Source: Fibrobacterota bacterium
GTDB lineage: Bacteria; Fibrobacterota; Fibrobacteria; UBA11236
Direction of reading: 5' to 3'
Length of the DNA: 64,000 nt
NCBI GenBank assembly: GCA_043753995.1
Contig: JAYUVP010000077.1
Coordinates: forward strand, 55 to 64,054
Below, piece after piece: positions 6,702-62,083 of this stretch (its first letter is position 1; every line of letters starts with the position of its first letter). The position numbers were made by a program, and so were the translations under genes. The notes beneath the pieces were generated by a model. It worked only from the letters and a program-made list of their open reading frames with translations. It did not search any database and was not told the DNA's origin.

Positions 6702-6710
6702 GACACAGCC

Positions 6711-8288: not shown

Positions 8289-8290
8289 CC

Positions 8291-15952: not shown

Positions 15953-15967
15953 CCCATAAAAAAACAA

Positions 15968-39764: not shown

Positions 39765-40488
39765 AGGATTTGGATAGCAGGCGTCCATCGGGAAAGCGGC
39801 GCGGCTTGATAGTCCCTGCGGCTTTGGTAGCATGTTTCTGAACCCCTTTGCGCGCGAAACTTCGGCTGCGTATACCCGCGACATCGCACCAACCCTCGCT
39901 CGACAAGTCCGCGCCGCTTCCGCAAATATCTTCCGGGGCATGCCTGAAATATTGACTTATGAATTGACGAAAGGCCGCGCTATCGAGGCAATCGGAGCTC
40001 AGGGAATGCCCCCAGGCAAGAACGGCGAAGCGCGAGCGCAATAGGGTATCCGGCGCAAGGATGGCGCGTCGATCGGTGGGAGCGCAAGTCGCGCTCTCTG
40101 AAGGCAAAGTTTTAACCAAGGCGCGCAGCTGCTGCAATTCATCAGCGCATCCCTCGGGACAACGATAAAGCAAGACAATGGCGCCATGCTCCAAATTGTG
40201 TAGCCAAAAGCCGGCTGGCACCGGTTGCGAATATTCTTTGAGCGCCGCCCAAATCCCGTAGTGATTTCCCGAAACTGGGGGATATTCTGGCTGGGGAATT
40301 TGCGAGCAGGCGCTCAAATGAGCCGCCGTACGCTCCGGCGCATCAAAAACATTGAGCTTGCAAAGATTTGAGGTTTGACCCAAAACCGAAATCACTGGAG
40401 CCAGCATCAGGAATGGAAAAGTCAAGAAAATGGGGCGCAACATGTAGGACAAACCTAAGCAAAAAGAAGGGGCTCGACGCCCCTTCAC
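39754..40488 (-). CDS. exported DUF3105-like protein
   Basis: Probable start MLRPIFLTF at about 40443. LHNLEHGAIVLLY motif. Confidence 0.45.
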   Translation of the reverse strand: MKGRRAPSFCLGLSYMLRPIFLTFPFLMLAPVISVLGQTSNLCKLNVFDAPERTAAHLSACSQIPQPEYPPVSGNHYGIWAALKEYSQPVPAGFWLHNLEHGAIVLLYRCPEGCADELQQLRALVKTLPSESATCAPTDRRAILAPDTLLRSRFAVLAWGHSLSSDCLDSAAFRQFISQYFRHAPEDICGSGADLSSEGWCDVAGIRSRSFARKGVQKHATKAAGTIKPRRFPDGRLLSKSFRE

Positions 40489-40508
40489 TAACCAAAACTT
40501 GATGGTGA

Positions 40509-40907
40509 TTACTTCTTGGCCAAGGTGCGAATATAGGCCACGACGCCTTTGATTTCATCCGGTTTCAAAGTGGTACCCCAAGGGGACATCAGGGGGGACA
40601 AATTATTGGCGGCGCCACCTTCCACCACAACCTTGGTCAATACCGAATCCGTGCGGCCCGTCATATAGGCTGCATCGGTGAAATTACGCGGCTTGGGATT
40701 CAAGGCCGCTGCGGCCACACCGTCACCTGCTCCGCTGGCACCATGACAGCTGACACAATACATCTCATAGGCCTTTTTGCCTTTTTCTAATTCGGCCTTG
40801 GAAACCGCCGGCTTTGCGGCCTTGGCTTTTGCCGCCGGTTTCTTTTCCGAGGCAAAGGACAAGCCAATCGCCAAAGTGGCGATGATTGCAATCAGTTTTT
40901 TATTCAT
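40509..40907 (-). CDS. class I c-type cytochrome
   Basis: CVSCH heme motif. Signal peptide. ATG at 40907 preceded by AAAGGAG. Confidence 0.7.
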   Translation of the reverse strand: MNKKLIAIIATLAIGLSFASEKKPAAKAKAAKPAVSKAELEKGKKAYEMYCVSCHGASGAGDGVAAAALNPKPRNFTDAAYMTGRTDSVLTKVVVEGGAANNLSPLMSPWGTTLKPDEIKGVVAYIRTLAKK

Positions 40908-40969
40908 CCGAACTCCTTTTCGTCTTTGACGATTTTGCTTCACTCAGGACCCTTTGAAAACGTAGTCGC

Positions 40970-43900
40970 TTAACCCACATGGAAATTTCCGCTTTGCTGC
41001 CAATAATTCATGGCATCGGCAAGATTGTCGCCCTCAATTTGAGTTTGACCCAGGGATTTTGCGCGCTTTTCAATTTCCTTCATGACTATACCCCGAATAA
41101 AGGAAGGGATTTTCATGGCTCGTGCCATGGCCTCTTCACTCCAGGGCATGGTCACCACCTGCTTGGCGCTGCCATCTCCCCAACTTTCATATTTATCCCC
41201 CATCACGGAAAAATCCACATTCACTTGGCCATGGGCTCGCGCCCATTTTTCCACGCGAAGACGAGTCATTTCTCGCATAAATCCTTCGGGTACGCGCTGC
41301 AAGCGAGATAAAGCGTCTTCATTCCAATACAGCATTTGCGTAGCGGAGGCGGAAGCCGCGTGGCGTTTTTCTGGGGAGAGGGCCATGAAAACCGATTTAC
41401 CGCAATTGGGGCAAGCATGGGGTTTCTCACCATCGAGGACAAGGCCACAAAGATGGCATTCCCAATGCACCGAGGCCTCAGCAATCTTTTCGGTTTCGTG
41501 TGGCTTGGCTTCGCCTAGGCCCTTGGAGGCCATGGCCTCACGCATGATTTCTCGCGCCTGGCCTAAACCCGCCTCGATGATTTCGAGGGTCACCGTGCCA
41601 AGTCCGCCTTGACGAGCATGCTTTTCAATGGTGCTCTTGGCGGCATGACGCATGAAGCCAGCAGGGACTTTTTCCAAACGCTGTAGCGCGGTCTCGGTCC
41701 AAAGCAATTCACCGATCGTGGTGGCGGGAGCCGGGGCGGCAGTAGGTGCAGGGGCGGCCATTGCCGAGGTTGCGGAATTCGATCCGAAGTGAGACACACC
41801 CAGCGCGGCTTCAACTCTTTCCAAGGTGACGCTGGACTGATGGTCGGCCATGGCTCGCTTCTCGATGCGATTGCGCAATTGCTGACGCTCAAAGGCATCA
41901 CTGACTTGGTCCAGCCTCCCCAAGGCTTGAGGGTCCCAACGAAGCTGACGCTCGCCCAAGGTATTCTGGGTTTCGCCAGTAGCCCCCGGAGCATCGCCCA
42001 TCAATTTGAATAGTGTTCCATCACGCCCACAAACCGGGCAGCTTTGGGGACGCAGGTTTTGATGCACATAACCGCATATGGGACAGCGATAGCTGAGAGA
42101 AATGGTGTCGAGATTGGCAGACTCGGCTTTTTGCTTGGCTTCCAAATTGAGCCCCATGCGCGCCAAGGCTTCGGCGGGCAAAATGGCCTTGAGGGCGGCA
42201 TGCAATATCGCCTCACTGACCACGGTATGGCCTTCGGCAATGCAATAATTCGCGATGGCCTTCATAGCCATAGGCCTCGCCATGGCAGGAACACCCTCCA
42301 GTTTGGCCTTGGCCTCGACCGTCCAAGCCACGGTCTCTTCGGCTTGAAATTCCACTGGAGGCTTGGCCTTGGACTCGGTCACCAAAACATTGAAACCGCA
42401 TTGACGCAAAATATTTTCGGTATTGCTGCCTAGGTCCATGCCTTCTTCGCTATGAAATCCGGTTCGCCCAAGCACCACCAACCAAGGCTGTAGGCTCTCG
42501 GTGAATTGCAGGATTTTTTCGAAAGGCTTGCCGTCCAGCAGGCGAGTCTCCACGGTGAGGTTTTCGCGTTCGGCGAGCCGCGCTGCGATATTCAGATAGC
42601 TCTGATAAATTTTAGCGAGGCCCGAATCGATAATGTCCTCATGCAGCTTTTCCTGCTCTTCGAACTTGAAAACCTTTCGGGCTTTATCGGTTAACGCGGT
42701 ATTCAAGCTCTTGAACATGGCATAGTGAAAATAAGGATCGAATGCGGACACCGCAATAATGCGCTTGCCGAAAGCTTTGGCGAGGGCAAAGGCACGGTAC
42801 AATCCACCCCAACTGCGCTCGCTACCGTCTAAACAAACAACGATTGCGTCGCCATGATTTTCTTCCTCGGTCCGCTTGACCACGAGAAAATCGCGGGCCA
42901 CGCGGCGCAAGGTGCGCTCGGTCACGGATCCCAATTGCGAACGCCCCACGCGGCCAATGCCGAAGCCTCCGAAGGCGATTAAGTCATGCGAATGGCCATT
43001 GATGTCCTCGACCAGCTTTTGCCAGTTTTTTCCTTCAAGGGAAACGGGTACATAGCTCAGGCCTTCGCGCGCACAGGCTTTGGCCATGACTTCCAAATAG
43101 GAATCCGTGATGAGTTCCAACCCTTTAGTGATCAAGCTATCGTGAATTTTCCTTTGCTTCTCCAATTCCTGCTCTTGCTGATATTCTGGAGGCAAACCAC
43201 CTTCCATGGCACGGAAGCGATTGTCATGCATTTTCGCGGCATAGACATGGCTGCCATGCAATTTCGCGTCGAAGACCTGGCCCATTTTCACCGCGATTTC
43301 CGTTGCGGCATTTGCCAAGGGCGAGGAATCGAGCCCGACATAAACGCTACGATAGCGCGTCAAATCGACTGCTTCACCCTGTGAGTTCGAGGGCGAAGGG
43401 GATGGAGTAGGGGTCGCTGGCTTTGAAGAATGATCGGCCAAGGGAGTCGGCGCGCCTCCATGCTTCGCATCTTCATCAGGACCCTGGCGTTCCATCACTT
43501 CACGAGCTTCTCGCACCACTTGCTGGGTGATGCGTTTGAAGTCGCGACGGCGCGCATATTTTTCAATTTGCTCGGTGATGAATTGACGAATCATGCCGGG
43601 AGCGCGATTCACCGACTCCATGGCATCGGCATCCCATTCCAAACCGCCATGGCTGGGTAAATGCACGATATTGTTCGTTTTTTCAGGGACACGGAAAGGC
43701 GTTTTGTCCTGAACTTGATTTACCCAAAGGATATAGGCATGAGGAAATTCATGCTGCGCAATATGAAAGCTATCGAATTCGAACATGGTCCGCGCCAAAC
43801 GAATGAATTCATGGCGAGGATCTTCAGGGCCAATGACTTCCACGACGGTATCGACTTGAAAACTCATATAGTCCGGGGCATTCCCCGTATAATGTAAGGA

Positions 43901-44413
43901 CGCCACCGGATTGCGACGCAAATTCTGATAGGTGGTGCGCTCGAATATTTCCAAAGTCGTCAAGGCACGATAATCAATCACATCACGACGAAAATAAAAT
44001 TTGGAAACCGCCTGAATACGCTCAGCTAGCGATTCTTGCCAGGGGCGGCCCTTGGTTTTTTCCATGATGCCGCGAAAGAGGTGAATATAATGCTGCAAAT
44101 ATTGGGGCTTGGGAATGAGACCCACGCCTTTATTTGAACAGTTGAAAGGGAAATCCTTGCTTTCATTGAAGGTCACCATGACCGGTAAATGCGAGGCGTG
44201 GAAAAGGGGGGCGCCTTTCAGCAATAATTTATCGTAAACACCGCGACGCCCTTGCTCTAGCCAGGCAATGACATTTTCAGGCAAGGGCATCAAGGGCAAT
44301 TCACGCTCCCCCCCGAGTAATGGCGCGGTCACGGTATTCTCACCGACTCGAACTTGCGGCTGGGGCAAGGCCCCCCTTTCAGTATCCGTCCAAGGCAATT
44401 TCTGCGCGCTCAT
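40970..44413 (-). CDS. 1147-aa multidomain protein: N-terminal domain of unknown fold, tandem universal-stress-protein-like domains, two rubredoxin-like zinc ribbons and about five PCP_red-like repeats
   Basis: Zinc ribbons CPICGYV..CPVCG and CHLCGLV..CPNCG. Repeated W(T/N/S).EA..RL.R.P.F.R......E..A...G motif recurs at least four times. Confidence 0.5.
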   Translation of the reverse strand: MSAQKLPWTDTERGALPQPQVRVGENTVTAPLLGGERELPLMPLPENVIAWLEQGRRGVYDKLLLKGAPLFHASHLPVMVTFNESKDFPFNCSNKGVGLIPKPQYLQHYIHLFRGIMEKTKGRPWQESLAERIQAVSKFYFRRDVIDYRALTTLEIFERTTYQNLRRNPVASLHYTGNAPDYMSFQVDTVVEVIGPEDPRHEFIRLARTMFEFDSFHIAQHEFPHAYILWVNQVQDKTPFRVPEKTNNIVHLPSHGGLEWDADAMESVNRAPGMIRQFITEQIEKYARRRDFKRITQQVVREAREVMERQGPDEDAKHGGAPTPLADHSSKPATPTPSPSPSNSQGEAVDLTRYRSVYVGLDSSPLANAATEIAVKMGQVFDAKLHGSHVYAAKMHDNRFRAMEGGLPPEYQQEQELEKQRKIHDSLITKGLELITDSYLEVMAKACAREGLSYVPVSLEGKNWQKLVEDINGHSHDLIAFGGFGIGRVGRSQLGSVTERTLRRVARDFLVVKRTEEENHGDAIVVCLDGSERSWGGLYRAFALAKAFGKRIIAVSAFDPYFHYAMFKSLNTALTDKARKVFKFEEQEKLHEDIIDSGLAKIYQSYLNIAARLAERENLTVETRLLDGKPFEKILQFTESLQPWLVVLGRTGFHSEEGMDLGSNTENILRQCGFNVLVTESKAKPPVEFQAEETVAWTVEAKAKLEGVPAMARPMAMKAIANYCIAEGHTVVSEAILHAALKAILPAEALARMGLNLEAKQKAESANLDTISLSYRCPICGYVHQNLRPQSCPVCGRDGTLFKLMGDAPGATGETQNTLGERQLRWDPQALGRLDQVSDAFERQQLRNRIEKRAMADHQSSVTLERVEAALGVSHFGSNSATSAMAAPAPTAAPAPATTIGELLWTETALQRLEKVPAGFMRHAAKSTIEKHARQGGLGTVTLEIIEAGLGQAREIMREAMASKGLGEAKPHETEKIAEASVHWECHLCGLVLDGEKPHACPNCGKSVFMALSPEKRHAASASATQMLYWNEDALSRLQRVPEGFMREMTRLRVEKWARAHGQVNVDFSVMGDKYESWGDGSAKQVVTMPWSEEAMARAMKIPSFIRGIVMKEIEKRAKSLGQTQIEGDNLADAMNYWQQSGNFHVG

Positions 44414-45768
44414 GAAGCACTCCGATGAATTTGATTTTCCATATTGACTTTAGCGTTTGGCTTGGGCATGTCGGCGCGCAGCGAGCCGAGCATGGCGCGA
44501 ACAAAGGCGGGAGGTTCGGATCCGGCGTCAAAGCCCAGGCCGTATTTGGCTTGGGACTCAGCGCGATGCCTTTCCATCATAGCCACCGTGATGGGTGCTC
44601 TTTCCCGCTTGGACCTTTCTTCGAGGCGTTTTCTTACCAGTGATCGAATAAATAGAGGCAAGCGTTTGAGGCGTTCCTGCGCTTCCTGAGTCCACATCGC
44701 CTCGAATTCCCCTGCCTCTCGCAGCGGCTGAATCACAATTCCACCCTTAGGCTGATAATCGCAATTGGGATCTTCTCCCATCAGTACGCCGGTTTGCGCA
44801 AGCGCGCGGGCTCGACATCCCCCGCAAAGCAATTTGTATTCGCAGGCACCGCAACGTCCTTGCAATAGTTCCGGCTTGCGAAAGCTTTGGAACAAAACCG
44901 ATTCATCCCAGACTTTCCAAAAACCTTCGCGCAACAAATGCCCGCCGGATAATTCCATATACGGGCAGGGAGTGATATCCCCTTCCGGAGTGATGCGTGC
45001 ATAATGCGTCGCCGCGGGACAGCCGCCGCCATCATAACCTTCGGCGCGCGTGAAAGACGATTGCGCATCGGCTTCATAGAGTATGCGCTTGAAATGCGGA
45101 GTGCATCGGCTTTGCACCATGAGGCCAGGCATTTCCTTCTGAATGCGCACGATGCGCATCAAGGCTTGTTCGTACTCAGCTGGCTCCAAATCCAAGGCGG
45201 GATTGCCACGGCCCACACAAACCAAGAAAAAGAAATTCACCAAGGAAGCGCCGAGGTCTTTCGCCATCAAGGCGACATCTTCCATCTCGCCATGATTGTG
45301 GCGTGTGACCGTGAAATGCACTTGGGCATGCACGCCATGCTTGGCACAAAGACGAATCGACTCGCAAGTCTTTTCAAAAGCACCCGTGACGCCACGAAAG
45401 GCATCATGCCCCGCGGGATGGGAAGCATCCAGGGAAATTCCGGCGCCTTGCAAGCCGGCCTCTTTCAAAGCGAGCAAGCGTTCTTCATTCAGCAAAAGGC
45501 CATTGGTGCCGAGGACCATGCGCAAACCCGCTTGCGAACCCGCAGAGACAAGCCGAACAAGGTCATAGCGCAGCAAAGGCTCACCACCGGTGAGGACCAC
45601 CATGGTGCCTGGCGCCCTTTCGGCCAAGGAAAGGAAGAATCGCTCCCAATCCTCAGTCGATAATTCCCCGGATCGCGTCGCCATACGCGAATTCGCGTCG
45701 AGATAACAATGGTGGCATGCCAGATTGCATCGTCGCGTAAGGTTGGCCGCCACCAAATAAGGCAACAT
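44410..45768 (-). CDS. radical SAM enzyme with SPASM-type auxiliary cluster domain and C-terminal PCP_red-like tail
   Basis: CNLACHHC (CxxxCxxC). Additional Cys clusters (CGACEYKLLCGGC). C-terminal WTQEAQERLKRLPLFIRSLVRKRLEE matches the repeat of the downstream giant protein. Confidence 0.7.
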   Translation of the reverse strand: MLPYLVAANLTRRCNLACHHCYLDANSRMATRSGELSTEDWERFFLSLAERAPGTMVVLTGGEPLLRYDLVRLVSAGSQAGLRMVLGTNGLLLNEERLLALKEAGLQGAGISLDASHPAGHDAFRGVTGAFEKTCESIRLCAKHGVHAQVHFTVTRHNHGEMEDVALMAKDLGASLVNFFFLVCVGRGNPALDLEPAEYEQALMRIVRIQKEMPGLMVQSRCTPHFKRILYEADAQSSFTRAEGYDGGGCPAATHYARITPEGDITPCPYMELSGGHLLREGFWKVWDESVLFQSFRKPELLQGRCGACEYKLLCGGCRARALAQTGVLMGEDPNCDYQPKGGIVIQPLREAGEFEAMWTQEAQERLKRLPLFIRSLVRKRLEERSKRERAPITVAMMERHRAESQAKYGLGFDAGSEPPAFVRAMLGSLRADMPKPNAKVNMENQIHRSAS

Positions 45769-45770
45769 GT

Positions 45771-46919
45771 TTAGAAATACACCTGCACGCGTCCCACGAT
45801 TTGATCCTGGTTGTCGCCGCCGACTTGAGGCTCGAAATCGTTGATGCGGTAATACAAGCCTAGTTGCACAAATTGCACGGGATAAGGCTCGACTCCTACG
45901 GTGATACGTCGCCGCCCATTATGCTCTTGCGCCCTTTTGTCGGGGGTCATCCACTCGAATACCCCCTTGAAGTTGAGGCCGCGCATGGGCAGACAATCCA
46001 CCTCGGCATAGTCCGCGATCATGTTAACGCCTTTCTTTTGAATCAGGTCACGCTCCCCAAAGACGGTGAACATGCCCATGGCGAAACCGCCGAATACACC
46101 CATGCTTGTGTTTTTAGCTCGTCTCTCCTTTACCTTGACCGGCAAGCTATAAGATCCGCCAAGGCGGAAGGTCCGCAATGCTATGGGCATTTCGCTGAAG
46201 ATGACCGATCCCACCGAGGAAATCAAATTGTCATTGGCATTGACGATGAGGGAAAGCGGGCCGGGTTCGATGCCGACTTCATAACTCATTCCGGTAGTAT
46301 TATAGGTATAGCCTGTATACTTACGCACGAAGGCTTCATCGTCCATAAGGCGAATGCCATAAGGCAATAGCATTTTACCCGCTTTGGCATAGGAATTCCA
46401 AAAGGGACTTTGCACCATGCCCCACATTTCACGCATAGCACCCGATAAGGCGCCTTGATCATAATAGAAGGTGAGAAAATCCTTTACTAAATCCACCTGA
46501 AAATAAAAGTTGGATTCTTTCACCGGAGCGGAAACAAAATCCGAGGAATAGGTTTGGGCCGAATCACCCACATTCACTGGCTTGGTTGTATAGGCCTGAG
46601 TGAAAGTCGGTTCGACGCGAAAGTTTGCGCCTACGGAAACCGAATTGGATAAGTTGGGATCAAAGCTATAAGCCTGCTTCTGGCTCTGCGCTGATTTCAT
46701 GAGCAATTGATATTGGGAGTAAATGACTCCGTATTCCGTGCGCTTGCCGCCACCGGTGCGATTGACATGGCATTGACTGCATTTGAAGCCGGTGCGCATG
46801 GCGAAATAGGGTTCGGCACTGACATTCCACGCCGCCGCCAAAACCCATCCGACGAGCCAAAACCAAACAGGACGCATTTTTTTCCCTCTCGATTTATGAA
46901 TGCCCATGCCCATATTCAT
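45771..46919 (-). CDS. exported protein with single CxxCH heme motif and beta-barrel-like C-terminus (possible outer-membrane heme protein)
   Basis: Signal peptide. CSQCH about 25 residues after the signal. Alternating hydrophobic pattern. C-terminal ..RVQVYF. Confidence 0.4.
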   Translation of the reverse strand: MNMGMGIHKSRGKKMRPVWFWLVGWVLAAAWNVSAEPYFAMRTGFKCSQCHVNRTGGGKRTEYGVIYSQYQLLMKSAQSQKQAYSFDPNLSNSVSVGANFRVEPTFTQAYTTKPVNVGDSAQTYSSDFVSAPVKESNFYFQVDLVKDFLTFYYDQGALSGAMREMWGMVQSPFWNSYAKAGKMLLPYGIRLMDDEAFVRKYTGYTYNTTGMSYEVGIEPGPLSLIVNANDNLISSVGSVIFSEMPIALRTFRLGGSYSLPVKVKERRAKNTSMGVFGGFAMGMFTVFGERDLIQKKGVNMIADYAEVDCLPMRGLNFKGVFEWMTPDKRAQEHNGRRRITVGVEPYPVQFVQLGLYYRINDFEPQVGGDNQDQIVGRVQVYF

Positions 46920-47542
46920 GGCAAGGCTCCTGCATTGATCCAGTTCTTAATCAATTCAATCTTATCGGCTTTAAGTGGGGCCCGTAATTGCGGCATTCGA
47001 ACCCCATCACCCGGAGGTTCTGCCATAGAAATTTTCAAATACATAAAGCTACTGTCCGCCTTACCTGGGACCACTCGCATGTAATTGGCAGTCTTGCTTC
47101 CCGTGGACCGTACATTTACCAAGTTGACATAGGCGGAATCGGGTATCAAAAACAATTTTGTCGAGGCTGCCGTACCGGTTGACTTGTGACATTCTTCACA
47201 GCTCGTTGTTATAATAGGCAGTATGTCTTTCGCGAAACTCGGCCCGGTCGGTGGAGTGCACCGGGCTGGTTTCACCGGAAGGGTGCAGGAATCGACGGCC
47301 ACCGTTGTGCATCTCGCGGGTTTGGTGGCCAAGGTGCAGGAATCGACAAGAACAATGCAACGGGCTGGTTTCACAGGCAGGGTGCAAGAATCCACAGGTG
47401 TCACCACCACTATAAGTGGTGCGCCATATTCATCAACTCCTATGCCGTCGCCCACCTTCATGCAAGCTACAAGACCTACTCCAATGATGAAGGACAAGGC
47501 CATCAGGACAATGGGCAATGCGCTCGTAGTATTGTTTTTCAC
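46916..47542 (-). CDS. PSCyt1-type (planctomycete-type) c-type cytochrome with three internal 16-17-aa repeats
   Basis: ILPIITTSCEECHKS ... VVPGKADSSFMYLKI ... LIKNWINAGA matches the PSCyt1 pattern. Repeats DSCTL(P/A)(V/T)KPARC occur three times. Confidence 0.55.
   Translation of the reverse strand: MKNNTTSALPIVLMALSFIIGVGLVACMKVGDGIGVDEYGAPLIVVVTPVDSCTLPVKPARCIVLVDSCTLATKPARCTTVAVDSCTLPVKPARCTPPTGPSFAKDILPIITTSCEECHKSTGTAASTKLFLIPDSAYVNLVNVRSTGSKTANYMRVVPGKADSSFMYLKISMAEPPGDGVRMPQLRAPLKADKIELIKNWINAGALP
47259..47395. repeat. three imperfect in-frame tandem repeats of about 48-51 bp inside the PSCyt1 cytochrome gene
   Basis: Units at 47259-47297, 47298-47347 and 47348-47395 share ggctggtttcac(c/a)gg(a/c)agggtgca(g/a)gaatc(g/c)ac. 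Each encodes VDSCTLPVKPARC-like peptides on the minus strand. Confidence 0.6.
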
Positions 47543-48492
47543 GGCGTCACCTCGGTGTTTTCAATGAATAGCCTTACAAGGAGGCTTCTGGGCTTTACCA
47601 GAGAATGCACATAATGCGCGAGCGCCCATTTTCGGCGTTCGGCCACAGCATTTTGCTGTTCCTCCCGCATGCGTGCGATGTCGGCGGAAGTGGGCTGAGC
47701 TCTTAACCAGGAACGCAATCGTTCGATTTCTTTTTCGCCATAAACTTCTTTCAACTTCATCGGATCCACTACGGCATCGCTGCCAATCAGAAAATCAGCA
47801 TGGGCATAGGCAGCCATCGGAGTGCCATTGAGTCCCGTGCTGAAAGTTCGATAAATCGATTTGGCATCATTTCCCGCACGGTAGCGTGCCTGGGTCATAT
47901 CGCGAGGAAGAATGGGGTGCCCCCAATCGTCCGTTAATGTTTTAGCGGTTTTCCCGTCGCCTTTTCCGGTACCGCCATGGCAAGACCAGCATTCCAATTT
48001 CATATAAACCATATGACCCTCTTGAATGGAAAGAGCTGTCGCAGGGGGAGCTTCGGGTATCCCCAAGGGTACGGGTGTCTCTTCAGCAAAGTCAGGCGAC
48101 AAAGACTTTATATAAGCCACGACATCGACTTTTTCTTGTTCGCTCAGCAAGTTCGCCCAAGCTGGCATTTGGGTGCCGGGAATGCCGAGATTCACCATGG
48201 CGAGCAAGTCGGCATCGGTCGGTAATTCTCCGCTGGCCGTGGTACGGAATTTGTAGACACCGGTGGTGAAATCCCGCGGCAAGGGCTTGAGATTCACTCC
48301 TGCGCTTCCTTGGCCATTTCCGAGATTGCCATGGCAGGCAGCGCAAGCTTTCAGATAAACCGGCAAACCGCGCGTCGCGGAGGCCGGAGCCAGCGGCTTC
48401 TGGACCTTGGGCGCGTCGCCCGCGAATGCCGCTGCGCCTAAGAAACAACCCAGGGTTGTCCAGGAGGCGATTGGCGAAAGACGAAATATCAC
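47539..48492 (-). CDS. membrane-anchored diheme c-type cytochrome
   Basis: CAACH and CWSCH motifs. Paralogous to the N-terminal part of the 49202-50716 protein. Confidence 0.7.
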   Translation of the reverse strand: MIFRLSPIASWTTLGCFLGAAAFAGDAPKVQKPLAPASATRGLPVYLKACAACHGNLGNGQGSAGVNLKPLPRDFTTGVYKFRTTASGELPTDADLLAMVNLGIPGTQMPAWANLLSEQEKVDVVAYIKSLSPDFAEETPVPLGIPEAPPATALSIQEGHMVYMKLECWSCHGGTGKGDGKTAKTLTDDWGHPILPRDMTQARYRAGNDAKSIYRTFSTGLNGTPMAAYAHADFLIGSDAVVDPMKLKEVYGEKEIERLRSWLRAQPTSADIARMREEQQNAVAERRKWALAHYVHSLVKPRSLLVRLFIENTEVTP

Positions 48493-48793: not shown

Positions 48794-49174
48794 TTATTCC
48801 TTCATGCCTTTATGTCGAGGAGCCAGAGTCCCTACATAGGCGGCGACATCCTTGATTTGATCGGGTGTCAAGGTGGCAACCTTCTTTTGCATGTCTACCG
48901 AAGTTTCAGTAGCGCGCTTTTTACTCGCGATGGCGGCAATTTGCTCGGCAGCATAGGCCGGGTCCAAGCCCGCGATTTGGGGTCCCTTTTGTTTATCCAA
49001 GGCATCTGGCTTAGCCTTACCCATGGCATCGGGATTGTGACAGGCGGCACAACCGGTTTTTTTGTAAACCTTAGCACCCTTGGTGACATCGCCGTCCGCA
49101 TGAACCGAGGCAGTCCAAGCGCCGATAAGCATGATAGCTGTGACAATGATTCTCGTTTTCATAGGTTTTCTCAT
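48794..49174 (-). CDS. class I c-type cytochrome
   Basis: CAACH motif. Signal peptide from MKTRIIVTAIML. Confidence 0.7.
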   Translation of the reverse strand: MRKPMKTRIIVTAIMLIGAWTASVHADGDVTKGAKVYKKTGCAACHNPDAMGKAKPDALDKQKGPQIAGLDPAYAAEQIAAIASKKRATETSVDMQKKVATLTPDQIKDVAAYVGTLAPRHKGMKE

Positions 49175-49201
49175 AGGTAACCTTTCCGTTACAGTTTAGC
49201 T

Positions 49202-50716
49202 TTAAGAATTTCGGCGTAAGGTATGACGAAGGCCCCATACCACTAAAAGCTGAATCACCATGGCCAATGCTCCCGCCTTGGCGGTTGGCACCCATGGTGA
49301 TTCGGTGGCGGGAGCTTGTAGATAAAGATTATACCAGGACGTCACACCATGTTTGCGGCCCGTTTCTTTCAAGGAACCGTCCCATACCGAAAAGGCCATG
49401 GGAATAAAGGTTTCCCGCGCAAAACGCTCGCCGGTCTTTCCCTTGCGTGCATGCGTCAAAATCAAGGTCCATTCCCCTTGGTGATAGTTCGCGGCTATAG
49501 GCAAGGTATCGTCGCCTGCGCGAAAATCATTCGAGCCTTTCGCGATGAAATTACGAATGAAGCCCGAAGGCCCGCCACTCTGAGTTTGCGCCAAATCGAC
49601 AAACCACAAATCCGCAGCCAATTTTTTATCACCCATGAGGAAAAAAGGCTTGGCATTGCCCTCTATAGGCTTGGCTGCGAATTGCATGGCCACAGCATCA
49701 CTAATAGCTGTCGTGGTATCCACGGCAAGAGGAATGGGAGAATTGTTTCCCTGGGTTTCCGCCGTCATATCATGCCATTTCAGTTGAAAGGCAATGGTTA
49801 GACTGTCATAGACAGCCCGCACCTGAATGGCATTCACACCCGAAGCATAGCAGCGAGGATCTTCCAATACCTGGCCCACGACGGGGAATAAACTGGCGGT
49901 GGCTTCGACGAATAGAGAATCGCGCTGAGCCCAATCGATTTTGGCCACTGGCTTAGCAACAACGGTGATGGAATAGGGCGCCTGCGATCCCGTTGGGGAA
50001 AGCGACTGGAGGTAATCGATTAATTTCCAGCGATCCTCCACTGGAATATCTTTGGCGAAAGAAGCCATGGGGGTGCCATTGAGTCCAGTGGAAATAGTTC
50101 GGAAAAGATCTTCTCGCGAAGCGCCGCCGCGAAAAGCCCAGGGTTTATTGAGATTGGCCGGTCGAATGGGATATCCCCAATCGTCACTGAGGGTGGGAGC
50201 AGTTTCGCCATCCCCGCGCCCTTGTTGTCCATGGCAATCGAAGCATTTATTGGCCTCGAAAATTTTACGGCCCTCAGCCAAATTTGCGGAATTGAATTCA
50301 GGAATCTTGGGAATGACCAAGTGTTCGGCATGCACCGAAGTGTCGGCAAAATCCGAAGAGAAAGATTGTAAATAGGTCACAATATCTTCTACTTCATCGT
50401 CGGAAAATTGCGGCCAAGCCGGCATACCCGTATAAGGCATACCTTTCCGTATCACTCGCTTTAAATCTTCTCGCGTCGGCAATTCACCGCTGGGCGTGCT
50501 ATGAATCTTGTATATCCCCAGAGTGAAATCACGGGGCAAGGGCCGGAATCCGTCTGCGCCCACGCCTTTGCCGTCGCCGGTCTCACCATGGCATTGCGAG
50601 CACTTGCTATCATAAATCGCTTTGCCTCGATCCGATGGCGTGCCTTTCTGGGCTTGCACCAGTGACGTCGTGCCTACAATTCCAACGAAAAGCGAGAGGA
50701 AGGTTGCGATTTTCAT
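49202..50716 (-). CDS. diheme c-type cytochrome fused to a C-terminal EB_dh-like (heme-b-type) domain, with C-terminal TM anchor
   Basis: CSQCH and CFDCH motifs. About 250-aa C-terminal domain. Terminal hydrophobic helix. Confidence 0.55.
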   Translation of the reverse strand: MKIATFLSLFVGIVGTTSLVQAQKGTPSDRGKAIYDSKCSQCHGETGDGKGVGADGFRPLPRDFTLGIYKIHSTPSGELPTREDLKRVIRKGMPYTGMPAWPQFSDDEVEDIVTYLQSFSSDFADTSVHAEHLVIPKIPEFNSANLAEGRKIFEANKCFDCHGQQGRGDGETAPTLSDDWGYPIRPANLNKPWAFRGGASREDLFRTISTGLNGTPMASFAKDIPVEDRWKLIDYLQSLSPTGSQAPYSITVVAKPVAKIDWAQRDSLFVEATASLFPVVGQVLEDPRCYASGVNAIQVRAVYDSLTIAFQLKWHDMTAETQGNNSPIPLAVDTTTAISDAVAMQFAAKPIEGNAKPFFLMGDKKLAADLWFVDLAQTQSGGPSGFIRNFIAKGSNDFRAGDDTLPIAANYHQGEWTLILTHARKGKTGERFARETFIPMAFSVWDGSLKETGRKHGVTSWYNLYLQAPATESPWVPTAKAGALAMVIQLLVVWGLRHTLRRNS

Positions 50717-51525
50717 TCCACCTCCTCCATGGCACGCGGCTTTAAGCCGGTATAGTCATACAGAAAAAGAATGACATCCCACATTTCTCCTTCACTCAAT
50801 TTGTCTTCCCATGCCGGCATAGCGCTATTCCAAGGCGTGCTCTCATCGGGCAAGCCGGGACCTCCTTTGGCGATGCGCCAAAGCAAATAGGATTCCGTCA
50901 GCATGCCGATGGTGGCCGGATCATTCAAGTTAGCGGGAATGGGATCGAAACCATGGCCATGCAGACCATCGCCTCGTAAATCATCGCCGTGACAGAAAAC
51001 ACAATTGCGATAATAAACGCCACGGCCATTCTCCACATGCTTTGAGAAAGCGCCTTTGTCCTTGCTTTCCAATTCACGATAGGGATTGTGATCGCGCATA
51101 ATATCGATTTTATGTCCCCGCACTGTAATTTCTTGCGGTGGGGCAGGATGGATGGTGCGCCCGGCAGCAGGCGGTACAATTTCCGCCGTTTTTTGCTCAT
51201 ACACCGACCAAGCCTGAGAGGCAGGGAATAAAAGCAATAGGAAGACGAGAAGGGGAATCCACCGCTTTTCCAATAAAAGGGAAGCCATGCCTTGTTTGCT
51301 GCTTTGCGCCCGTGCTTTGTCCGAGGCGGCATAGAGCAATAAAGCGACCGTGAGAACGCCCATATACATGCCGCGTATCGAAGCCGGAATCGGAGGCACT
51401 ACGCCCCATTTGATCATCACCAAAAAGCCAATCCAGAAGGCCGCCAGCCATATCAAAATATTGGCACGGGTAAATCGCAATGCGAAGAGGCCAAGGCTTA
51501 CGCCTCCGATGACCCATAAATTCAT
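50713..51525 (-). CDS. polytopic membrane protein with C-terminal c-type cytochrome domain
   Basis: About 4 N-terminal TM helices, then CVFCH. Confidence 0.55.
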   Translation of the reverse strand: MNLWVIGGVSLGLFALRFTRANILIWLAAFWIGFLVMIKWGVVPPIPASIRGMYMGVLTVALLLYAASDKARAQSSKQGMASLLLEKRWIPLLVFLLLLFPASQAWSVYEQKTAEIVPPAAGRTIHPAPPQEITVRGHKIDIMRDHNPYRELESKDKGAFSKHVENGRGVYYRNCVFCHGDDLRGDGLHGHGFDPIPANLNDPATIGMLTESYLLWRIAKGGPGLPDESTPWNSAMPAWEDKLSEGEMWDVILFLYDYTGLKPRAMEEVE

Positions 51526-51532
51526 GCGTACC

Positions 51533-52033
51533 TCATGGCTTGGCCCCGCTCAAGGACGCGGTCTGGTATTTCAATTGGGTTTTCATATTGACGGTCGCAC
51601 TTCCACCCAAACTCTGCAAATAGGCGATGACGCAAAGAATTTCTGCATCGCTGAGCCCAACGGGTGGCTTATTGATGGTGGGCATACCTGCACTAAAGCC
51701 CGACACGAGAAAAATATTGGGCTCATAAAGGCTTTCCGCCAAATAATCCACATCACTATAACCCGGCTTGCGATGCTTGGCCGTCTCTCCCACACCCGCC
51801 AAATCTGGAAAACGTAAGGATCCGGAGGCGCCGAGAGTGTGGCATGCCATGCAGGTTCCCTTGCCTCCGACGATTTCTTGTCCGGCCGCCACCATTTCCT
51901 CAACACCCATGTCGGGATTCAGTACGCGCTCTTTAGGAGGATGCACTTCGGCTTGTGGCACCATATGCCCGACATAGGTGTAAAAAGCGGTGACCAGTAA
52001 GGTGAATAAAGCGAGTTGAATAGCGTTTTTCAT
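51533..52033 (-). CDS. membrane-anchored c-type cytochrome
   Basis: N-terminal TM. CMACH motif. Confidence 0.65.
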   Translation of the reverse strand: MKNAIQLALFTLLVTAFYTYVGHMVPQAEVHPPKERVLNPDMGVEEMVAAGQEIVGGKGTCMACHTLGASGSLRFPDLAGVGETAKHRKPGYSDVDYLAESLYEPNIFLVSGFSAGMPTINKPPVGLSDAEILCVIAYLQSLGGSATVNMKTQLKYQTASLSGAKP

Positions 52034-54069
52034 TTGTGGCCATGCTTGGGCGAATGCGAATGTTTACCGCTAAGGCTGGAAAGCCAGAACACGATGGCAA
52101 TGATGGCGAAAAAGATGAGCACGGTCACGGAAACAACATTGGCTGCATAGCCCAAAGTCGGGGTGAAGGCCTCGGGGGAGGTGTCCTTCATGACGCCGTA
52201 AACGTGCCAATGCTGACGAATGCCGGAGCGCACATAGCCCATCAAACCCATGAGCCATGTGAAACTGATGGCGATCAAGAAAAGGGCGTATTGTGCAATC
52301 GCCGGCATTTTCCCCCATCGTATTTCGCCGGTTACCTTGGCTCGCTTAAACATAAAGACATCAATTATCGTGACGGAAATCATGGCGAATAAAACCGCGA
52401 AGACCTGGGGCACGGAAAGCTTGATACGCACCGCGGCCTCGACGAAATAGCCATAGACACCGAGGGCGATAACCCAAAGCGTGGTGACAGAGAAAATCAG
52501 GAATTGAATGCGATCGCCGAGTTTCGCCCAGGAGACCGTAGCTTGAATATTACCTCGACGATAAAGCAGAAAGCTGATATAGGTGGTGAGGATGAGGATA
52601 TTCACCGCCGTGTTTTTGGCCGACATCACTCCTAATACGCCCAGCATGGGATGATGTGCGCCACCCATTTTACGGGCCTCTTCCACCGTGGCCACCAGGC
52701 TATGCGGAGTCGCCCAAACCAAAAAGCAAATTGTGATCACACCCAGCAAGTATTTAATGAAAGGCTGAAAACGCTCCGCTCCCTGGATGCGCCCCATACC
52801 CAGCCACAAATAAAAGTTGGCGCCGAGAAAAAGCACGCCGATGAGTATGGCTTGAATGATGAAGAGCCAGGAAAAGGCTCCGCCCATGAGGGTCATGCCC
52901 ATATTTTGGGAATAGGCATACATCTCCTTGCCAAGCCAATAGCCCGCAAAGGGAAGCGGTAGAAAGGAAGCGATGGCGACGAAATTGCCGATATAGCCCA
53001 TCCAATCGTAGTGAGCCTTTTCTGCTTCGGTTTTGGCGCCCAAAAATTTGAAGGCTGCATAGGCGGAGGCAATGGATCCACCGAAGGCGACATTGGCTAT
53101 CATGCGATGCACATTGATAGGCATCCAAATGAAGTTGTGAATGGCATCCCAACGGCTCACCAAGGCGCCGGATTCGGTAACGCCATTGGGTGACATCATA
53201 AAGGTGAGCCAGGCATCGGCGATGAACATGATGCCCAAACCGACGACATTCAGGCCGAGACCAAGCATCAAATGCACGCCTGGCCGAAATTTTCCCCAGC
53301 CATAGTAATAGCTGTAGAGAAAAATCGCTTCCAGGAAAAACAAACCGACATAAGGGAGAAAGGTCATATCGAAAATACCGACCAAATAATTCATGACCTT
53401 GGGATAAAGGAGAAAAAGCAGGAAGGTGAGGCCGGCGCCTAGTGAAGCGGTGAAGGAAAAACTTGTCGATAATAGCTTGGTGAATTCATAGGCGAGATCG
53501 TCGTAACGCGTGTCCTTGGTGCGATAGCCGATGAATTCAATGATCAGGGCAAATAGAGGTACGGCCAAAACAAAGGCGGCAAACATCAAATGCAATTGCG
53601 CGAATATCCATACGATGACGCGGCTATTGATTCCAGGTAGTTTCCGATATTCCGGCGTTTCTCCAGGTGCGGTGCCGGCGATGATCTTGGGTGGCTCTTC
53701 GCCCGGTTTAGGCTTATGCGCTTCCAGGATCCAAGTAACGATGACGCGAATATCTTCGTCCGAAAGGGTCGGATGGGGAATCATGGGCATGGAGCCCCAG
53801 GCCCCGCCACCCCCCTCTTTCACTTTTTTGCACAAGGCAGGAATATCCGCCGTGACGTATTTGCCCGCGATAGCTTTGAAGGAAGGACCTACGAGTTGCT
53901 TATCGGCGGTATGACAGGCAATGCAATCGCTTTTCTGCATAGCGGGTGGAGGAGGAAGCAACCCAGGCTCGGCAAAGCCCGGTCCCGCTAAGACCAGAAC
54001 AAGGAGCCAAAACAAGACACCGGCGTAAGCATGCACTCCAAAGCTGCGGCGAATAAAACTCATTGCCAA
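52030..54069 (-). CDS. c-type cytochrome domain fused to a cytochrome bd-type oxidase subunit I (CydA)-like membrane protein
   Basis: N-terminal CIACH. The membrane part aligns by eye with E. coli CydA at helix 1 (QLHLMF vs MYHF), FLEAIFLYSYYYGW vs FLESTFVGLFFFGW, and HLMLG..W..MMSPNG vs HMCV..W..MQNP. Confidence 0.6.
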   Translation of the reverse strand: MAMSFIRRSFGVHAYAGVLFWLLVLVLAGPGFAEPGLLPPPPAMQKSDCIACHTADKQLVGPSFKAIAGKYVTADIPALCKKVKEGGGGAWGSMPMIPHPTLSDEDIRVIVTWILEAHKPKPGEEPPKIIAGTAPGETPEYRKLPGINSRVIVWIFAQLHLMFAAFVLAVPLFALIIEFIGYRTKDTRYDDLAYEFTKLLSTSFSFTASLGAGLTFLLFLLYPKVMNYLVGIFDMTFLPYVGLFFLEAIFLYSYYYGWGKFRPGVHLMLGLGLNVVGLGIMFIADAWLTFMMSPNGVTESGALVSRWDAIHNFIWMPINVHRMIANVAFGGSIASAYAAFKFLGAKTEAEKAHYDWMGYIGNFVAIASFLPLPFAGYWLGKEMYAYSQNMGMTLMGGAFSWLFIIQAILIGVLFLGANFYLWLGMGRIQGAERFQPFIKYLLGVITICFLVWATPHSLVATVEEARKMGGAHHPMLGVLGVMSAKNTAVNILILTTYISFLLYRRGNIQATVSWAKLGDRIQFLIFSVTTLWVIALGVYGYFVEAAVRIKLSVPQVFAVLFAMISVTIIDVFMFKRAKVTGEIRWGKMPAIAQYALFLIAISFTWLMGLMGYVRSGIRQHWHVYGVMKDTSPEAFTPTLGYAANVVSVTVLIFFAIIAIVFWLSSLSGKHSHSPKHGHK

Positions 54070-54385: not shown

Positions 54386-56167
54386 TTACCAGGGATAAAA
54401 TGACGCAAGCATGCCCATCGGGAATAAGTCATCCGGCTCTTCTCCGCTTTCCACGGATTCCAAGGCAATAAAACCGTCCGTGCCAGCCAAGGCCGAAAAA
54501 TCGCCCGAGCCCTGATTGGCCACTGGCGTCGCCCATAAGCGTCCATCGCTGTCACGGCGAATACGGCAAGGCAGCATGGTGGTGAAATTTTTAGGCCCTC
54601 GGTTCCAGGGAATTTCCAAAGCAGCCATTTCCGGGGTTTCGGGAGGCAGGCCTGCGCCGCGACGCAAAACCGGTAAGACGAAGCGACGAAAGCAAAACAA
54701 AACCGGCACGGGATTGCCAGGCAAGCCGAAAACCTGTCGCCCGGCCAGGCCAACCGACGTCGCATCGGTGATACCGTACCACAAAGGTTTACCTGGTTTC
54801 TGCTTCACCTTGTGAAAAACTTCGCGTACCCCGATGGCCGCCATGGCCTCAGGCACCAAATCCAGTTCGCCCATGGAAACCCCACCCGTGACGAGAAGCA
54901 CATCGCCCTCTTCCAAAGCCCGGCTTAGGCCTTCACGTAGCTTGTCAGGTTGATCGGGACAATGAATCCAGGCCACCGTTTCGGCTACCCCTTGCAAGGC
55001 CGCCATCAAGGCCGGGCCATTGCTCTGACGCACTTGATGCGATAAAGGCCGCTTGTCCACGGGCACGAGTTCATCGCCGGTGGTCACCACGGCCACGCGA
55101 GGGCGGCGAAAGACCTTGAGCTGGGTGCAACCCAAGGATGCCGCCACGCCGATTTCCGAGGCGCGCAAGAGAGTCCCCGCCTCCAGGACCCTATCCCCTT
55201 GGCGCTTGTCTTTGCCACGGGGATGAACATTTTTTCCGGCAGCGACCATTAGATCTTGCGGCAGAATAGCCAAGACGCGCCCGGGATGGGCTCCTGCCTC
55301 GGCTAAGTCTCCGCCCCGCAAATCGACATCTTCGATGCGTATCACTCGATCGCAACCCTCAGGAAGGATGGCCCCCGTCATCACGGTCATACACTCGTCG
55401 TCAGTGCTGAGGATTTTTTGCGGTTCGCCTGCGCGTTGGGCGCCCTGCACGCGAAAAGATCGCCTTCCGCTTTCCCAGGCTTGACCGGACACCGCAATGC
55501 CGTCCATGGACACCCGATCATAAGGTGGCCAATCGCGATCGGCATGCAAGTTGGCGGCCAAGACTCGACCCACGGCTTGATCCAGAGTCACATCCACGAT
55601 ACCGTAATGCCGCAGTGACCTGGCTATCAAGCCTTCCGCTTCACTAGCGGTGATAAAATGCGCGGGATTCCCTGGGGAGGCCTGACGCCAAGCCAGCCAA
55701 TCGCCGGAAGGTATAGGCACTAGGCCAGCCACCGGGCGCTGGTACAAATAGCAGAGAGCCCTTTGCATGATGCCGGGGCCCTGCCCCTCGGCTTCTCCGC
55801 CACCCATTACCCAGATTTCGACAGGAGCAAATTCGGCAGCCTGGGGACGGCGCGCATCAAAATCCTCATACGCATTCAAAACCGATAGGACCCGTTTCTC
55901 ATCGCTTAGCTCCAAAAGCCGTCCAAAGACCTGGGCATGGGCCTCAAATACAGGGGGTGCGCCCCCATGCAGCGATTGGGTCGTGGCCTGGGCCACGGCC
56001 GCAGGATAGGCTCCCAAACTGAAAAGCGAGCCTGCAAAGCTTGCTGGCCCCAAATCCCGCGTGTATTTGCACAGGACCTCGTCCACTTCGGGATTGCCGG
56101 TGCTATGTAATAAGGTGCCATAAACGAAAAGCCGGGGTGCTTGCATGCTGCTTCTCCTGGCTCTCAA
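54386..56167 (-). CDS. moeA: molybdopterin molybdotransferase MoeA with N-terminal gamma-glutamylcyclotransferase/AIG2-like domain
   Basis: C-terminal about 400 aa have MoeA motifs (VAVVTTGDEL, LVTGGVSMGE). N-terminal about 190 aa begin PRLFVYGTL (AIG2/GGCT signature). Confidence 0.65.
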   Translation of the reverse strand: MRARRSSMQAPRLFVYGTLLHSTGNPEVDEVLCKYTRDLGPASFAGSLFSLGAYPAAVAQATTQSLHGGAPPVFEAHAQVFGRLLELSDEKRVLSVLNAYEDFDARRPQAAEFAPVEIWVMGGGEAEGQGPGIMQRALCYLYQRPVAGLVPIPSGDWLAWRQASPGNPAHFITASEAEGLIARSLRHYGIVDVTLDQAVGRVLAANLHADRDWPPYDRVSMDGIAVSGQAWESGRRSFRVQGAQRAGEPQKILSTDDECMTVMTGAILPEGCDRVIRIEDVDLRGGDLAEAGAHPGRVLAILPQDLMVAAGKNVHPRGKDKRQGDRVLEAGTLLRASEIGVAASLGCTQLKVFRRPRVAVVTTGDELVPVDKRPLSHQVRQSNGPALMAALQGVAETVAWIHCPDQPDKLREGLSRALEEGDVLLVTGGVSMGELDLVPEAMAAIGVREVFHKVKQKPGKPLWYGITDATSVGLAGRQVFGLPGNPVPVLFCFRRFVLPVLRRGAGLPPETPEMAALEIPWNRGPKNFTTMLPCRIRRDSDGRLWATPVANQGSGDFSALAGTDGFIALESVESGEEPDDLFPMGMLASFYPW

Positions 56168-60602: not shown

Positions 60603-60717
60603 CCCCGGTTCCGCACCCGAGTCAGCATCCCGACTATAACCGTAATATCATCGAGAAGCACTTCTGATTATTGCGAATGTCGTTTCCGCTTTGGGTCTTG
60701 GCCGGGGGCTTCGGTGA

Positions 60718-61983: not shown

Positions 61984-62083
61984 TATTCGCCTTTCTCTAA
62001 TTTGCTATGCTTCGAAGTCGCAATATTATCACCTGTAATTTTAATGATCTATTCCGGTCGCTTGCGACGGCCGGGCCCTGGCC

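Follow-up and report, generated by a model that had tools for sequence, protein, structure and literature searches.

A fused monohaem cytochrome-porin of a Fibrobacterota bacterium: a candidate outer-membrane electron conduit distantly related to Cyc2 and Cyt572

A 64,000-nucleotide stretch of DNA from a Fibrobacterota bacterium (contig JAYUVP010000077.1 of assembly GCA_043753995.1; the whole stretch is referred to as the window) encodes at positions 45771..46919 of its minus strand an exported protein of 382 amino acids (aa), in which a conserved c-type haem motif on a 58-residue peptide is fused to a 16-strand β-barrel; these properties are shown directly or strongly predicted. We regard it as moderately probable that this fused monohaem cytochrome-porin constitutes an outer-membrane electron conduit, operating here probably inward to oxygen, and a distant sister of the Cyc2/Cyt572 proteins; it probably carries electrons across the outer membrane.

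The open reading frame (ORF) terminates with the stop codon at 45771-45773, and its first ATG and the stop of the gene preceding it share an ATGA; all coordinates given for the gene and its operon refer to the minus strand. A second candidate ATG is located at position 46877 (Met15), preceded at a distance of 7 nt by a GAGGG box that resembles a Shine-Dalgarno sequence, and may represent the true start; the precursor would comprise 382 aa with the first start and 368 aa with the second, and the mature protein is identical in both cases. The Sec-type signal peptide (residues 1-35, 46815..46919) was judged by eye and from the alignment of the homologues, which are variable up to a conserved AEPY: the N-terminus MNMGMGIHKSRGKKMRPVWFWLVGWVLAAAWNVSA, followed by EPY, displays a basic n-region, a hydrophobic core and a V-S-A cleavage site, with the predicted cleavage between VSA and EPY. 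The adjoining N-terminal haem peptide (residues 36-93, 46641..46814) contains the family signature EPYFAMRTGFKCSQCHVNRTGGGKRT and the single CxxCH of the protein (CSQCH with residues C47, C50 and H51, 46767-46781; three cysteines are present overall), the first haem cysteine occupying mature position 12 according to the predicted cleavage site. The chain terminates with ...IVGRVQVYF. Class I soluble c-type cytochromes possess a helical fold of ~80-100 residues with His/Met axial ligation; such a fold is not present here, as only 58 residues lie ahead of the barrel and no Cytochrom_C match was obtained. Indeed, the Pfam scan of the protein returned nothing at E <= 1 and hence no Cytochrom_C, MtrB_PioB or porin family match, the NCBIfam scan gave no match, the sequence search of the PDB yielded nothing even at E <= 10, and the Rfam scan of the window was without a match. 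The silence of Pfam and NCBIfam is uninformative, since proteins with the full Cyc2 motifs also gave no match in either scan and neither library holds a Cyc2 model.

The protein belongs to a large family. A word-index search of 5.8 billion proteins recovered 276 homologues of uniform length (about 355-390 aa), all of them unannotated, and a profile search that covered 1.84 billion representatives exhaustively extended the family to 1,690 clusters (50% identity) at E <= 1e-3, including 288 at E <= 1e-30. All of the 69/69 aligned homologues retain C47, C50 and H51, and E36, P37, Y38, R42, G44, K46, G56, G57 and R60 of the haem peptide are invariant in the same alignment; the rigid signature AEPY.A.R.G.KCSQCHVN.TGGG.R begins at the predicted signal-peptidase site, and the AEPY..KCSQCH block is present in essentially all family ORFs of ~77 genomic loci (designated by L numbers) from many phyla. 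Positions 381-382 are Phe in >=90% of the 69 sequences, and ~20 charged residues are invariant or nearly so, with invariant ones also located within the barrel region. The family-wide conservation of the haem block and the aromatic C-terminus argues that these features are not due to chance. According to a scan of 185,579 species genomes, the hosts are represented by metagenome-assembled genomes (MAGs) of Fibrobacteria, KSB1, Calditrichota, Marinimicrobia/Fidelibacterota, Latescibacterota, Gemmatimonadota and Steroidobacteraceae, besides a small number of further groups, i.e. mainly phyla of the Fibrobacteres-Chlorobi-Bacteroidetes (FCB) group and Steroidobacteraceae rather than classical iron oxidisers. 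Tandem paralogous cytochrome-porin genes were observed at two loci (L036, 7947-10787, and L051, 7749-9591).

The fold of the protein is predicted with confidence. In the AlphaFold2 model based on the 69-sequence alignment (mean predicted local distance difference test score (pLDDT) 81.8, predicted TM-score (pTM) 0.78), residues ~94-382 are all-β at pLDDT 85-96 and constitute the porin domain (residues 94-382, 45774..46640), the end of which, ...RVQVYF, resembles a β-signal. The DSSP assignment of the model revealed 16 main strands, connected by periplasmic turns of 2-5 residues and by longer outer loops, of which L1 corresponds to residues ~103-132. In classical porins, the constriction loop L3 is located between strands 5 and 6; based on the alignment and the model, the 24-residue loop between strands 5 and 6 of the cytochrome-porin (residues 185-208, LPYGIRLMDDEAFVRKYTGYTYNT, 46296..46367), which contains a short helix at 197-200, appears to match this position and is therefore termed L3-like. 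This stretch, LPYGIRLMDDEAFVRKYTGYTY, is the best-conserved one of the barrel region, with P186, G188 and R199 invariant and L185, R190, D193, A196, F197 and Y206 conserved in >=90% of the sequences. The Foldseek search of the PDB gave 203 matches at E <= 1e-3; the best ones (E 1e-9 to 1e-11) were OprP (2o4v, E 5.5e-11), OmpU, PorB and, at rank 9, OprO (4rjw). A soluble periplasmic cytochrome was thus rejected on the grounds of the predicted 16-strand porin barrel. An earlier note on this DNA had proposed from the sequence a signal peptide, one haem-binding motif right after it and a strand-like C-terminus ending in RVQVYF, and had taken them to indicate an outer-membrane barrel; the n-region, hydrophobic core and V-S-A site, the single CSQCH at 47-51 (mature position 12) and the confidently predicted barrel with its conserved terminal aromatic residue bear all of this out, and in place of the soluble fold that the note had named as the refuting outcome, an OprP-like 16-strand barrel is predicted.

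The similarity to the classical porins OmpF, OmpU, PorB and OprP/OprO comprises the 16 strands, the short periplasmic turns and the L3-like loop with its short helix. The structural matches reach TM-scores of ~0.5-0.6, but at a sequence identity of only 8-14%; the protein itself remains below every Pfam porin threshold, one member of its family has a sub-threshold Porin_O_P match and another a precomputed Porin_4 match, and classical porins possess no counterpart of the N-terminal haem peptide. With regard to this fold, the protein could be a substrate-specific porin in which the haem acts as a plug, sensor or catalytic group, e.g. in redox gating or envelope peroxide detoxification. Its nearest structural relatives are indeed the anion-specific OprP/OprO, and the many invariant charged barrel residues are reminiscent of specific channels; furthermore, a five-coordinate, ligand-binding haem would be possible given the lack of a conserved distal ligand (see below), and a CCP_MauG peroxidase is encoded near the gene in L018. 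This interpretation is nevertheless highly improbable in our view: the genes linked to the family near-universally encode soluble cytochromes that carry electrons and not transporters or regulators, the haem segment is probably homologous to that of Cyc2, and MtrC-like partners are present at some loci.

The second type of barrel to be compared is that of the multihaem conduits. MtrAB/PioAB-type systems consist of a 26-strand porin through which a separate decahaem MtrA/PioA is threaded (PMC8406198). The cytochrome-porin shares with MtrCAB, MtoAB and PioAB the principle of a haem-housing outer-membrane barrel that links periplasmic cytochromes (in MtrCAB also surface lipoprotein cytochromes); some members of its family adjoin genes for MtrC/OmcA-like decahaem lipoproteins, and the product of the upstream gene (up208, see below) has a predicted lipoprotein signal. 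In contrast to MtrB/PioB with their ~26 strands, ~650-700 aa and separate decahaem protein, it has 16 strands, 382 aa and one covalently fused haem, and domain scans revealed no gene for an MtrA-like decahaem protein in the operon of the window. An MtrB/PioB-type porin was therefore rejected because of strand number, size and the lack of a Pfam match at E <= 1. Of the likeness to porin-cytochrome conduits that the earlier note had suggested, the cytochrome-rich context held, being partly conserved across phyla; we consider the electron-conduit interpretation supported and infer the conduit function itself. The appropriate comparison is the fused monohaem type represented by Cyc2 and Cyt572 rather than the MtrAB/PioAB type.

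The published definition of Cyc2 requires >=365 aa with a signal peptide, one single CXXCH and a porin of 16 strands, together with the motifs (A)xPxFAR[Q/K][T/Y] upstream of the CXXCH and PxL four residues downstream (Keffer et al. 2021, PMC8406198); the templates reported for its porin part are OprP and OprO (PMC8406198; bioRxiv 10.1101/2021.03.22.436458), and Cyc2, Cyc2PV-1 and Cyt572 are homologous only at the N-terminus (PMC5566968). The signal peptide, the single N-terminal CXXCH, the OprO/OprP-like 16-strand porin and the length of at least 365 aa are all found in the cytochrome-porin. For comparison, a Cyc2 reference set was compiled by back-translating the published motif and scanning a metagenome collection, which yielded 78 ORFs (329-591 aa, only one being shorter than 405 aa), most of them terminating in an aromatic residue; the set is biased to motif-bearing Cyc2, because it was harvested by that motif (A[IV]P[AS]FAR[KQ][YT]G..C..CH...P.L..FG..FK.NGY in the harvested form). 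Sequence-level similarity, for which blastp E <= 1e-5 or the FeGenie Cyc2 hidden Markov models (HMMs) would be the measure, was assessed with this set and our own subgroup HMMs instead of the three original queries and the FeGenie HMMs, and was not found: the best blastp match to the 78 proteins had E 0.002 over 19-41 residues (the haem motif only), and the HMMs of five Cyc2 subgroups scored the protein at 5-18 bits versus medians of 23-102 bits between the subgroups. The relation is visible only in profile-profile comparison. The alignment of the cytochrome-porin family (A1) matched that of 42 of the 78 Cyc2-motif proteins (A2) in hhalign over 318 columns (probability 96%, E 2.8e-9); the haem motifs were aligned in register, and a 3-residue gap was opened at the place of the PxL of Cyc2. 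When the profiles were split, the haem segments alone matched at E 5e-11 over 36 columns; the values between the family and the Cyc2 subgroups ranged from E 2e-10 to 7e-5, those between pairs of Cyc2 subgroups from 7e-13 to 5e-28. Unrelated CxxCH segments, used as a control, matched the family over 8-10 columns only (E 4e-3 to 2.5e-6), and a 35-column match to Cyc2 persisted at E 7.5e-5 after masking of both cysteines and the histidine. Besides the register, the positions A.P..A..[TY]G are common to the family and Cyc2, and according to the predicted cleavage sites both have Pro as residue 2 and the first haem cysteine as residue 12 of the mature chain. A shared origin of the two types of haem peptides is thus suggested by the sequences and considered likely.

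With respect to genomic context, only two neighbours of the cytochrome-porin gene are broadly conserved. The first, up208 (46916..47542), is located directly upstream, translationally coupled, and encodes a monohaem c-type cytochrome with a predicted lipoprotein signal: a lipobox LVAC (Cys27) is followed by a conserved C-MK.GDG.G motif (alignment A3), and the C-terminal domain of ~105 residues, which matches the TIGR03806 C-terminal cytochrome domain at E 3.6e-9, contains a CxxCH at 115-119 and an invariant Met183-Pro184. This domain was modelled as helical from only 8 homologues; the fold search with the model gave a sole, weak match to a hydrazine synthase chain (5c2v_A, E 0.012). Between lipobox and cytochrome domain (residues ~49-96, window ~47255-47398), up208 contains three tandem Cys-pair peptides (V)DSCTLPVKPARC, the number of which differs among the homologues of A3; Tandem Repeats Finder did not see these Cys-rich repeats at the DNA level. 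The second neighbour, c317 (47539..48492), encodes a periplasmic dihaem c4-type cytochrome with two Cytochrome_CBB3/Cytochrom_C domains and two CxxCH. An up208-type gene, usually monohaem and often encoding a lipoprotein, is located directly upstream of the cytochrome-porin gene in at least 53 of the ~77 loci (with a gap usually of less than 50 nt or an overlap), and a c317-type dihaem cytochrome of ~310-340 aa is encoded beside the module in 40 loci. The c4-up208-porin module is common to Fibrobacteria, KSB1, Calditrichota, Marinimicrobia, Latescibacterota, Gemmatimonadota and Steroidobacteraceae; in L036, each of the tandem cytochrome-porin copies is accompanied by its own up208-type gene. 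At the Gemmatimonadota loci L033, L037-L040, L044-L046, L049, L050 and L054 and at L023, L024 and L026, the up208-type partner has kept its place directly upstream of the cytochrome-porin gene but lost its CxxCH, so that this partner is not a c-type cytochrome there. Among canonical Cyc2 loci with sufficient flanking sequence, a dihaem c-type cytochrome gene is positioned directly downstream in 16/29 (cyc2-cyc1 order), and none of 120 Cyc2-motif loci contains an up208 homologue. In consequence, the c4 partner is shared with Cyc2, whereas up208 is specific to the cytochrome-porin family.

The lipoprotein nature of up208 and the partners at other loci bear on the direction of electron flow. As an alternative to inward transfer, electrons could be passed outward from periplasmic cytochromes via the barrel haem to a lipoprotein cytochrome on the cell surface, either up208 or an MtrC/OmcA-like protein, and on to extracellular acceptors, e.g. 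Fe(III)/Mn(IV) oxides or humics, which would make the protein part of a minimal MtrCAB analogue. MtrC is a lipoprotein; at two loci (L076, 5353-9336, and L079, 7413-12574), the cytochrome-porin has an additional CxxCH where its sequence aligns with L1, a predicted extracellular loop, and the next gene encodes a lipoprotein decahaem MtrC/OmcA-like cytochrome of 865 and 1044 aa, respectively (PF22113, E 1e-55 and 1e-49). These two-haem variants may link Cyc2-type and Mtr-type conduits. Partner cytochromes at further loci carry immunoglobulin (Ig)-like domains typical of surface proteins (Big_2, Big_5), an octahaem c7-type neighbour is present in L055, up208 itself has a lipobox and a conserved post-Cys motif, and many host phyla of the family are anaerobic or facultative sediment bacteria. 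On the other hand, the O2-reducing bd-like oxidase, c4 cytochrome and cupredoxins found in the window and in several lineages are high-potential carriers that fit inward flow, the surface exposure of up208 is only putative, and its Gemmatimonadota homologues have no haem site. The outward direction is judged unlikely; the MtrC-linked variants and the Ig-domain partners are compatible with an outward Mtr-like mode and also with up208 as the surface constituent of a three-part conduit. In other lineages, the neighbours of the gene include cupredoxins (6 loci), EB_dh proteins (8 loci) and Big_2-domain dihaem proteins (7 loci). As a tentative proposal, less probable than not, the cytochrome-porin, up208 and the dihaem c4 might form a previously unrecognised, widespread three-component conduit, a "minimal MtrCAB" in which barrel and inner haem are one chain and the outer haem resides on a surface lipoprotein.

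In the window, the module is embedded in a larger operon in the order bd-like oxidase, five cytochromes c, up208, cytochrome-porin, radical SAM protein, PCP_red/Usp/rubredoxin protein and c144. Its upstream part (48794..54069), assigned from Pfam and NCBIfam matches, comprises the gene for a bd-like oxidase subunit I of 679 aa with a fused N-terminal c-type cytochrome domain (52030-54069), the cytochromes c c166 (51533-52033) and c270 (50713-51525), a dihaem c protein with an ethylbenzene-dehydrogenase gamma-like (EB_dh) haem-b domain (49202-50716) and the monohaem c126 (48794-49174). The downstream part (40466..45768), assigned from domain matches and a hairpin, consists of an AhbD/NirJ-like radical SAM/SPASM protein with a C-terminal PCP_red directly downstream of the cytochrome-porin gene (44410-45768), a 1147-aa protein with 6 PCP_red, 2 Usp and rubredoxin-like zinc ribbons (40970-44413), and the last cytochrome c, the monohaem c144 (40509-40943), which is followed by a terminator-like hairpin with a T-run (40466-40486); promoter and terminator scans were overall no better than for shuffled sequence, and this hairpin alone was convincing. 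The same operon is present in L082 (63-88% identity), in Fibrobacteria MAGs (~30-75% identity) and, with 83% identity, in SRR29333057, and its upstream oxidase block also in L001, L003, L005 and L082. The four-gene oxidase block (52030-54069, c166, c270 and EB_dh) recurs with 31-57% identity in L011, L012 and L048 in rearranged form, always adjoining the cytochrome-porin gene; its occurrence beside the gene in different gene orders argues for a functional link. Co-occurrence of the downstream part is limited to the closest relatives and a few other loci: both the radical SAM and the PCP_red-type neighbours are located beside the module in L001, L003, L004 and L082, and one of the two types in L002, L005, L018 (Rhodothermales), L024 (Bacteroidetes) and L048 (Deltaproteobacteria). 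The radical SAM protein is closest to the haem b synthase AhbD (278 bits) and to NirJ2 (256 bits), both far short of the equivalog cut-offs of 500; conceivably, these neighbours tailor the haem or the protein. An unusual haem has been described for Leptospirillum Cyt572 (Keffer et al., PMC8406198).

According to the mechanism proposed, the 58-residue haem peptide, too short for a free-standing cytochrome, would be placed in the barrel lumen or at its periplasmic mouth, where the L3-like loop and the ~20 conserved charged residues would keep it in position. Through its haem, electrons would be exchanged with the periplasmic dihaem c4 on one side and with the outside on the other, the outside partner being a small redox substrate that enters the pore or the putative surface lipoprotein cytochrome up208; by analogy with Cyc2, Fe(II) would be the obvious candidate donor. 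In the genome of the window, the chain would continue via several cytochromes c to the cytochrome-c-fused bd-like oxidase, and this course, together with the c4 and EB_dh context, favours an inward electron flow to O2 in a lithotrophic or auxiliary oxidation.

Several observations weigh against the combined reading as an inward conduit and distant Cyc2/Cyt572 relative. The haem segment (residues 32-79) was modelled at pLDDT < 50 and its position relative to the barrel is not fixed by the model, which is expected as the cofactor is missing from it. Neither a conserved Met nor a second His was found in the family alignment as a distal haem ligand; in consequence, the haem may be ligated in an unusual manner. 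The linkage to the oxidase is restricted to only ~9 of 82 loci, and most hosts of the family are not known iron oxidisers. With respect to Cyc2, the strict motif PxFAR[QK][TY], by which the 78 metagenomic Cyc2 proteins were recognised, occurs in 0 of ~77 family ORFs (AEPYFAMRT in the window, family consensus AEPY[LIMF]A[VLMI]R[TE]), and PxL is replaced as well (CH-VNRTGGGKR, family N.TGGG.R). Furthermore, the barrels alone did not match significantly in the split-profile comparison (E 0.006); as comparisons among accepted Cyc2 subgroups also often fail to reach significance for the barrel (E 0.03-0.16), in agreement with the reported restriction of homology to the N-terminus, this result speaks neither for nor against homology. 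The link to Cyc2 thus depends on ~36 residues, for which convergence could in principle be responsible.

These differences have also to be considered with regard to the opposite view, i.e. that the protein is a plain Cyc2 orthologue, for example of the heterogeneous "Cluster 3", and oxidises Fe(II) at the cell surface. Architecture, OprO/P-like barrel and in-register haem-segment homology agree with such an assignment, as do the c4-type partner known from cyc2-cyc1 and the oxidase in the operon. In addition, FeGenie-based surveys have reported "Cyc2 homologues", often of "Cluster 3", in Calditrichota, Gemmatimonadota and KSB1 (PMC9769843, PMC11316326), some of which may belong to the present family. 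The replacement of the two motifs by PY.A.R[TE] and N.TGGG, the poor blastp and subgroup HMM scores, haem-segment E-values weaker than those of every Cyc2-Cyc2 pair (at most 7e-13) and the absence of the up208 partner from all 120 Cyc2-motif loci render orthology quite improbable. Compared with the Cyc2 of Acidithiobacillus ferrooxidans, the Cyc2PV-1 of Mariprofundus and the Cyt572 of Leptospirillum, the cytochrome-porin likewise exhibits a haem peptide of ~50-60 residues, a 16-strand barrel, an aromatic C-terminus and a dihaem c4-type neighbour; it differs by its own invariant signature EPY..R.G.KCSQCH.N..GGG.R, a shorter mature chain (~347 residues versus a median of ~428 in the Cyc2 set), the reversed gene order, with c4 upstream instead of downstream, and the family-specific upstream partner up208. 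Since two defining motifs are absent and the distance exceeds that of any sampled pair of Cyc2 subgroups, the family is, as far as sequence comparison can define it, a separate sister family of Cyc2/Cyt572 and not a member of Cyc2.

The remainder of the window contains several features apart from this operon. A protein of family TIGR02147 "Fsuc_second" (DUF4423), which we take to be a paralogous family of Fibrobacter succinogenes, is encoded at 22358-23281 (minus strand; 191 bits versus a cut-off of 50). It supports a Fibrobacterota origin of the DNA, as do the nearest homologues of the cytochrome-porin and the syntenic operons, which were found in Fibrobacteria MAGs; the genome is probably that of an environmental member of the phylum. 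The region 5301-9829 (plus strand) comprises a large terminase subunit gene (5301-6701) followed by two long unannotated ORFs, and genes for a Mu-type transposase (DDE_2, Mu-transpos_C, rve; 13892-15952) and a MuB-like AAA protein (15968-16960) are present on the same strand; 5301-9829 and 13892-16960 probably represent a Mu-like prophage or the remnant of a transposable phage. One ORF of 1506 aa (24610-29130, minus strand) combines a full AcrB-type resistance-nodulation-division (RND) transporter (residues 26-1028) with an OEP/TolC-like outer-membrane efflux domain (1087-1282), and a gene for a membrane-fusion protein (29130-30224) lies ahead of it; this RND-OEP fusion looks unusual and could alternatively have arisen artificially from assembly or a frameshift. 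The region 54386-56167 (minus strand) encodes a MoeA molybdopterin molybdotransferase that carries a GGACT (gamma-glutamyl cyclotransferase-like) domain at its N-terminus, the same fusion being present in L082, and the five consecutive ORFs of 57679-63951 (235-683 aa) gave no Pfam or NCBIfam match.

To our knowledge, neither iron oxidation nor extracellular electron transfer is known from members of the Fibrobacterota. Cyc2 is the chief genetic marker from which microbial iron oxidation is inferred in genomes and metagenomes; the family described here, with at least 1,690 clusters concentrated in abundant sediment, soil and marine phyla, would be either missed by motif-filtered Cyc2 pipelines or lumped uncritically into "Cluster 3". 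As a distinct family, it widens the list of lineages that possibly exchange electrons with minerals or dissolved metals and offers a clean biochemical target for the question of how one porin-held haem moves electrons across the outer membrane, with natural variants that bear on the mechanism, i.e. two-haem forms, haem-less partners and MtrC-linked forms. If the three-component arrangement were true, extracellular electron exchange would extend to Fibrobacterota, Gemmatimonadota, Marinimicrobia, KSB1, Calditrichota and Latescibacterota, phyla without such a reputation, and the MtrC-coupled two-haem variants would hold an intermediate position in evolution between the Cyc2 and Mtr types of system.

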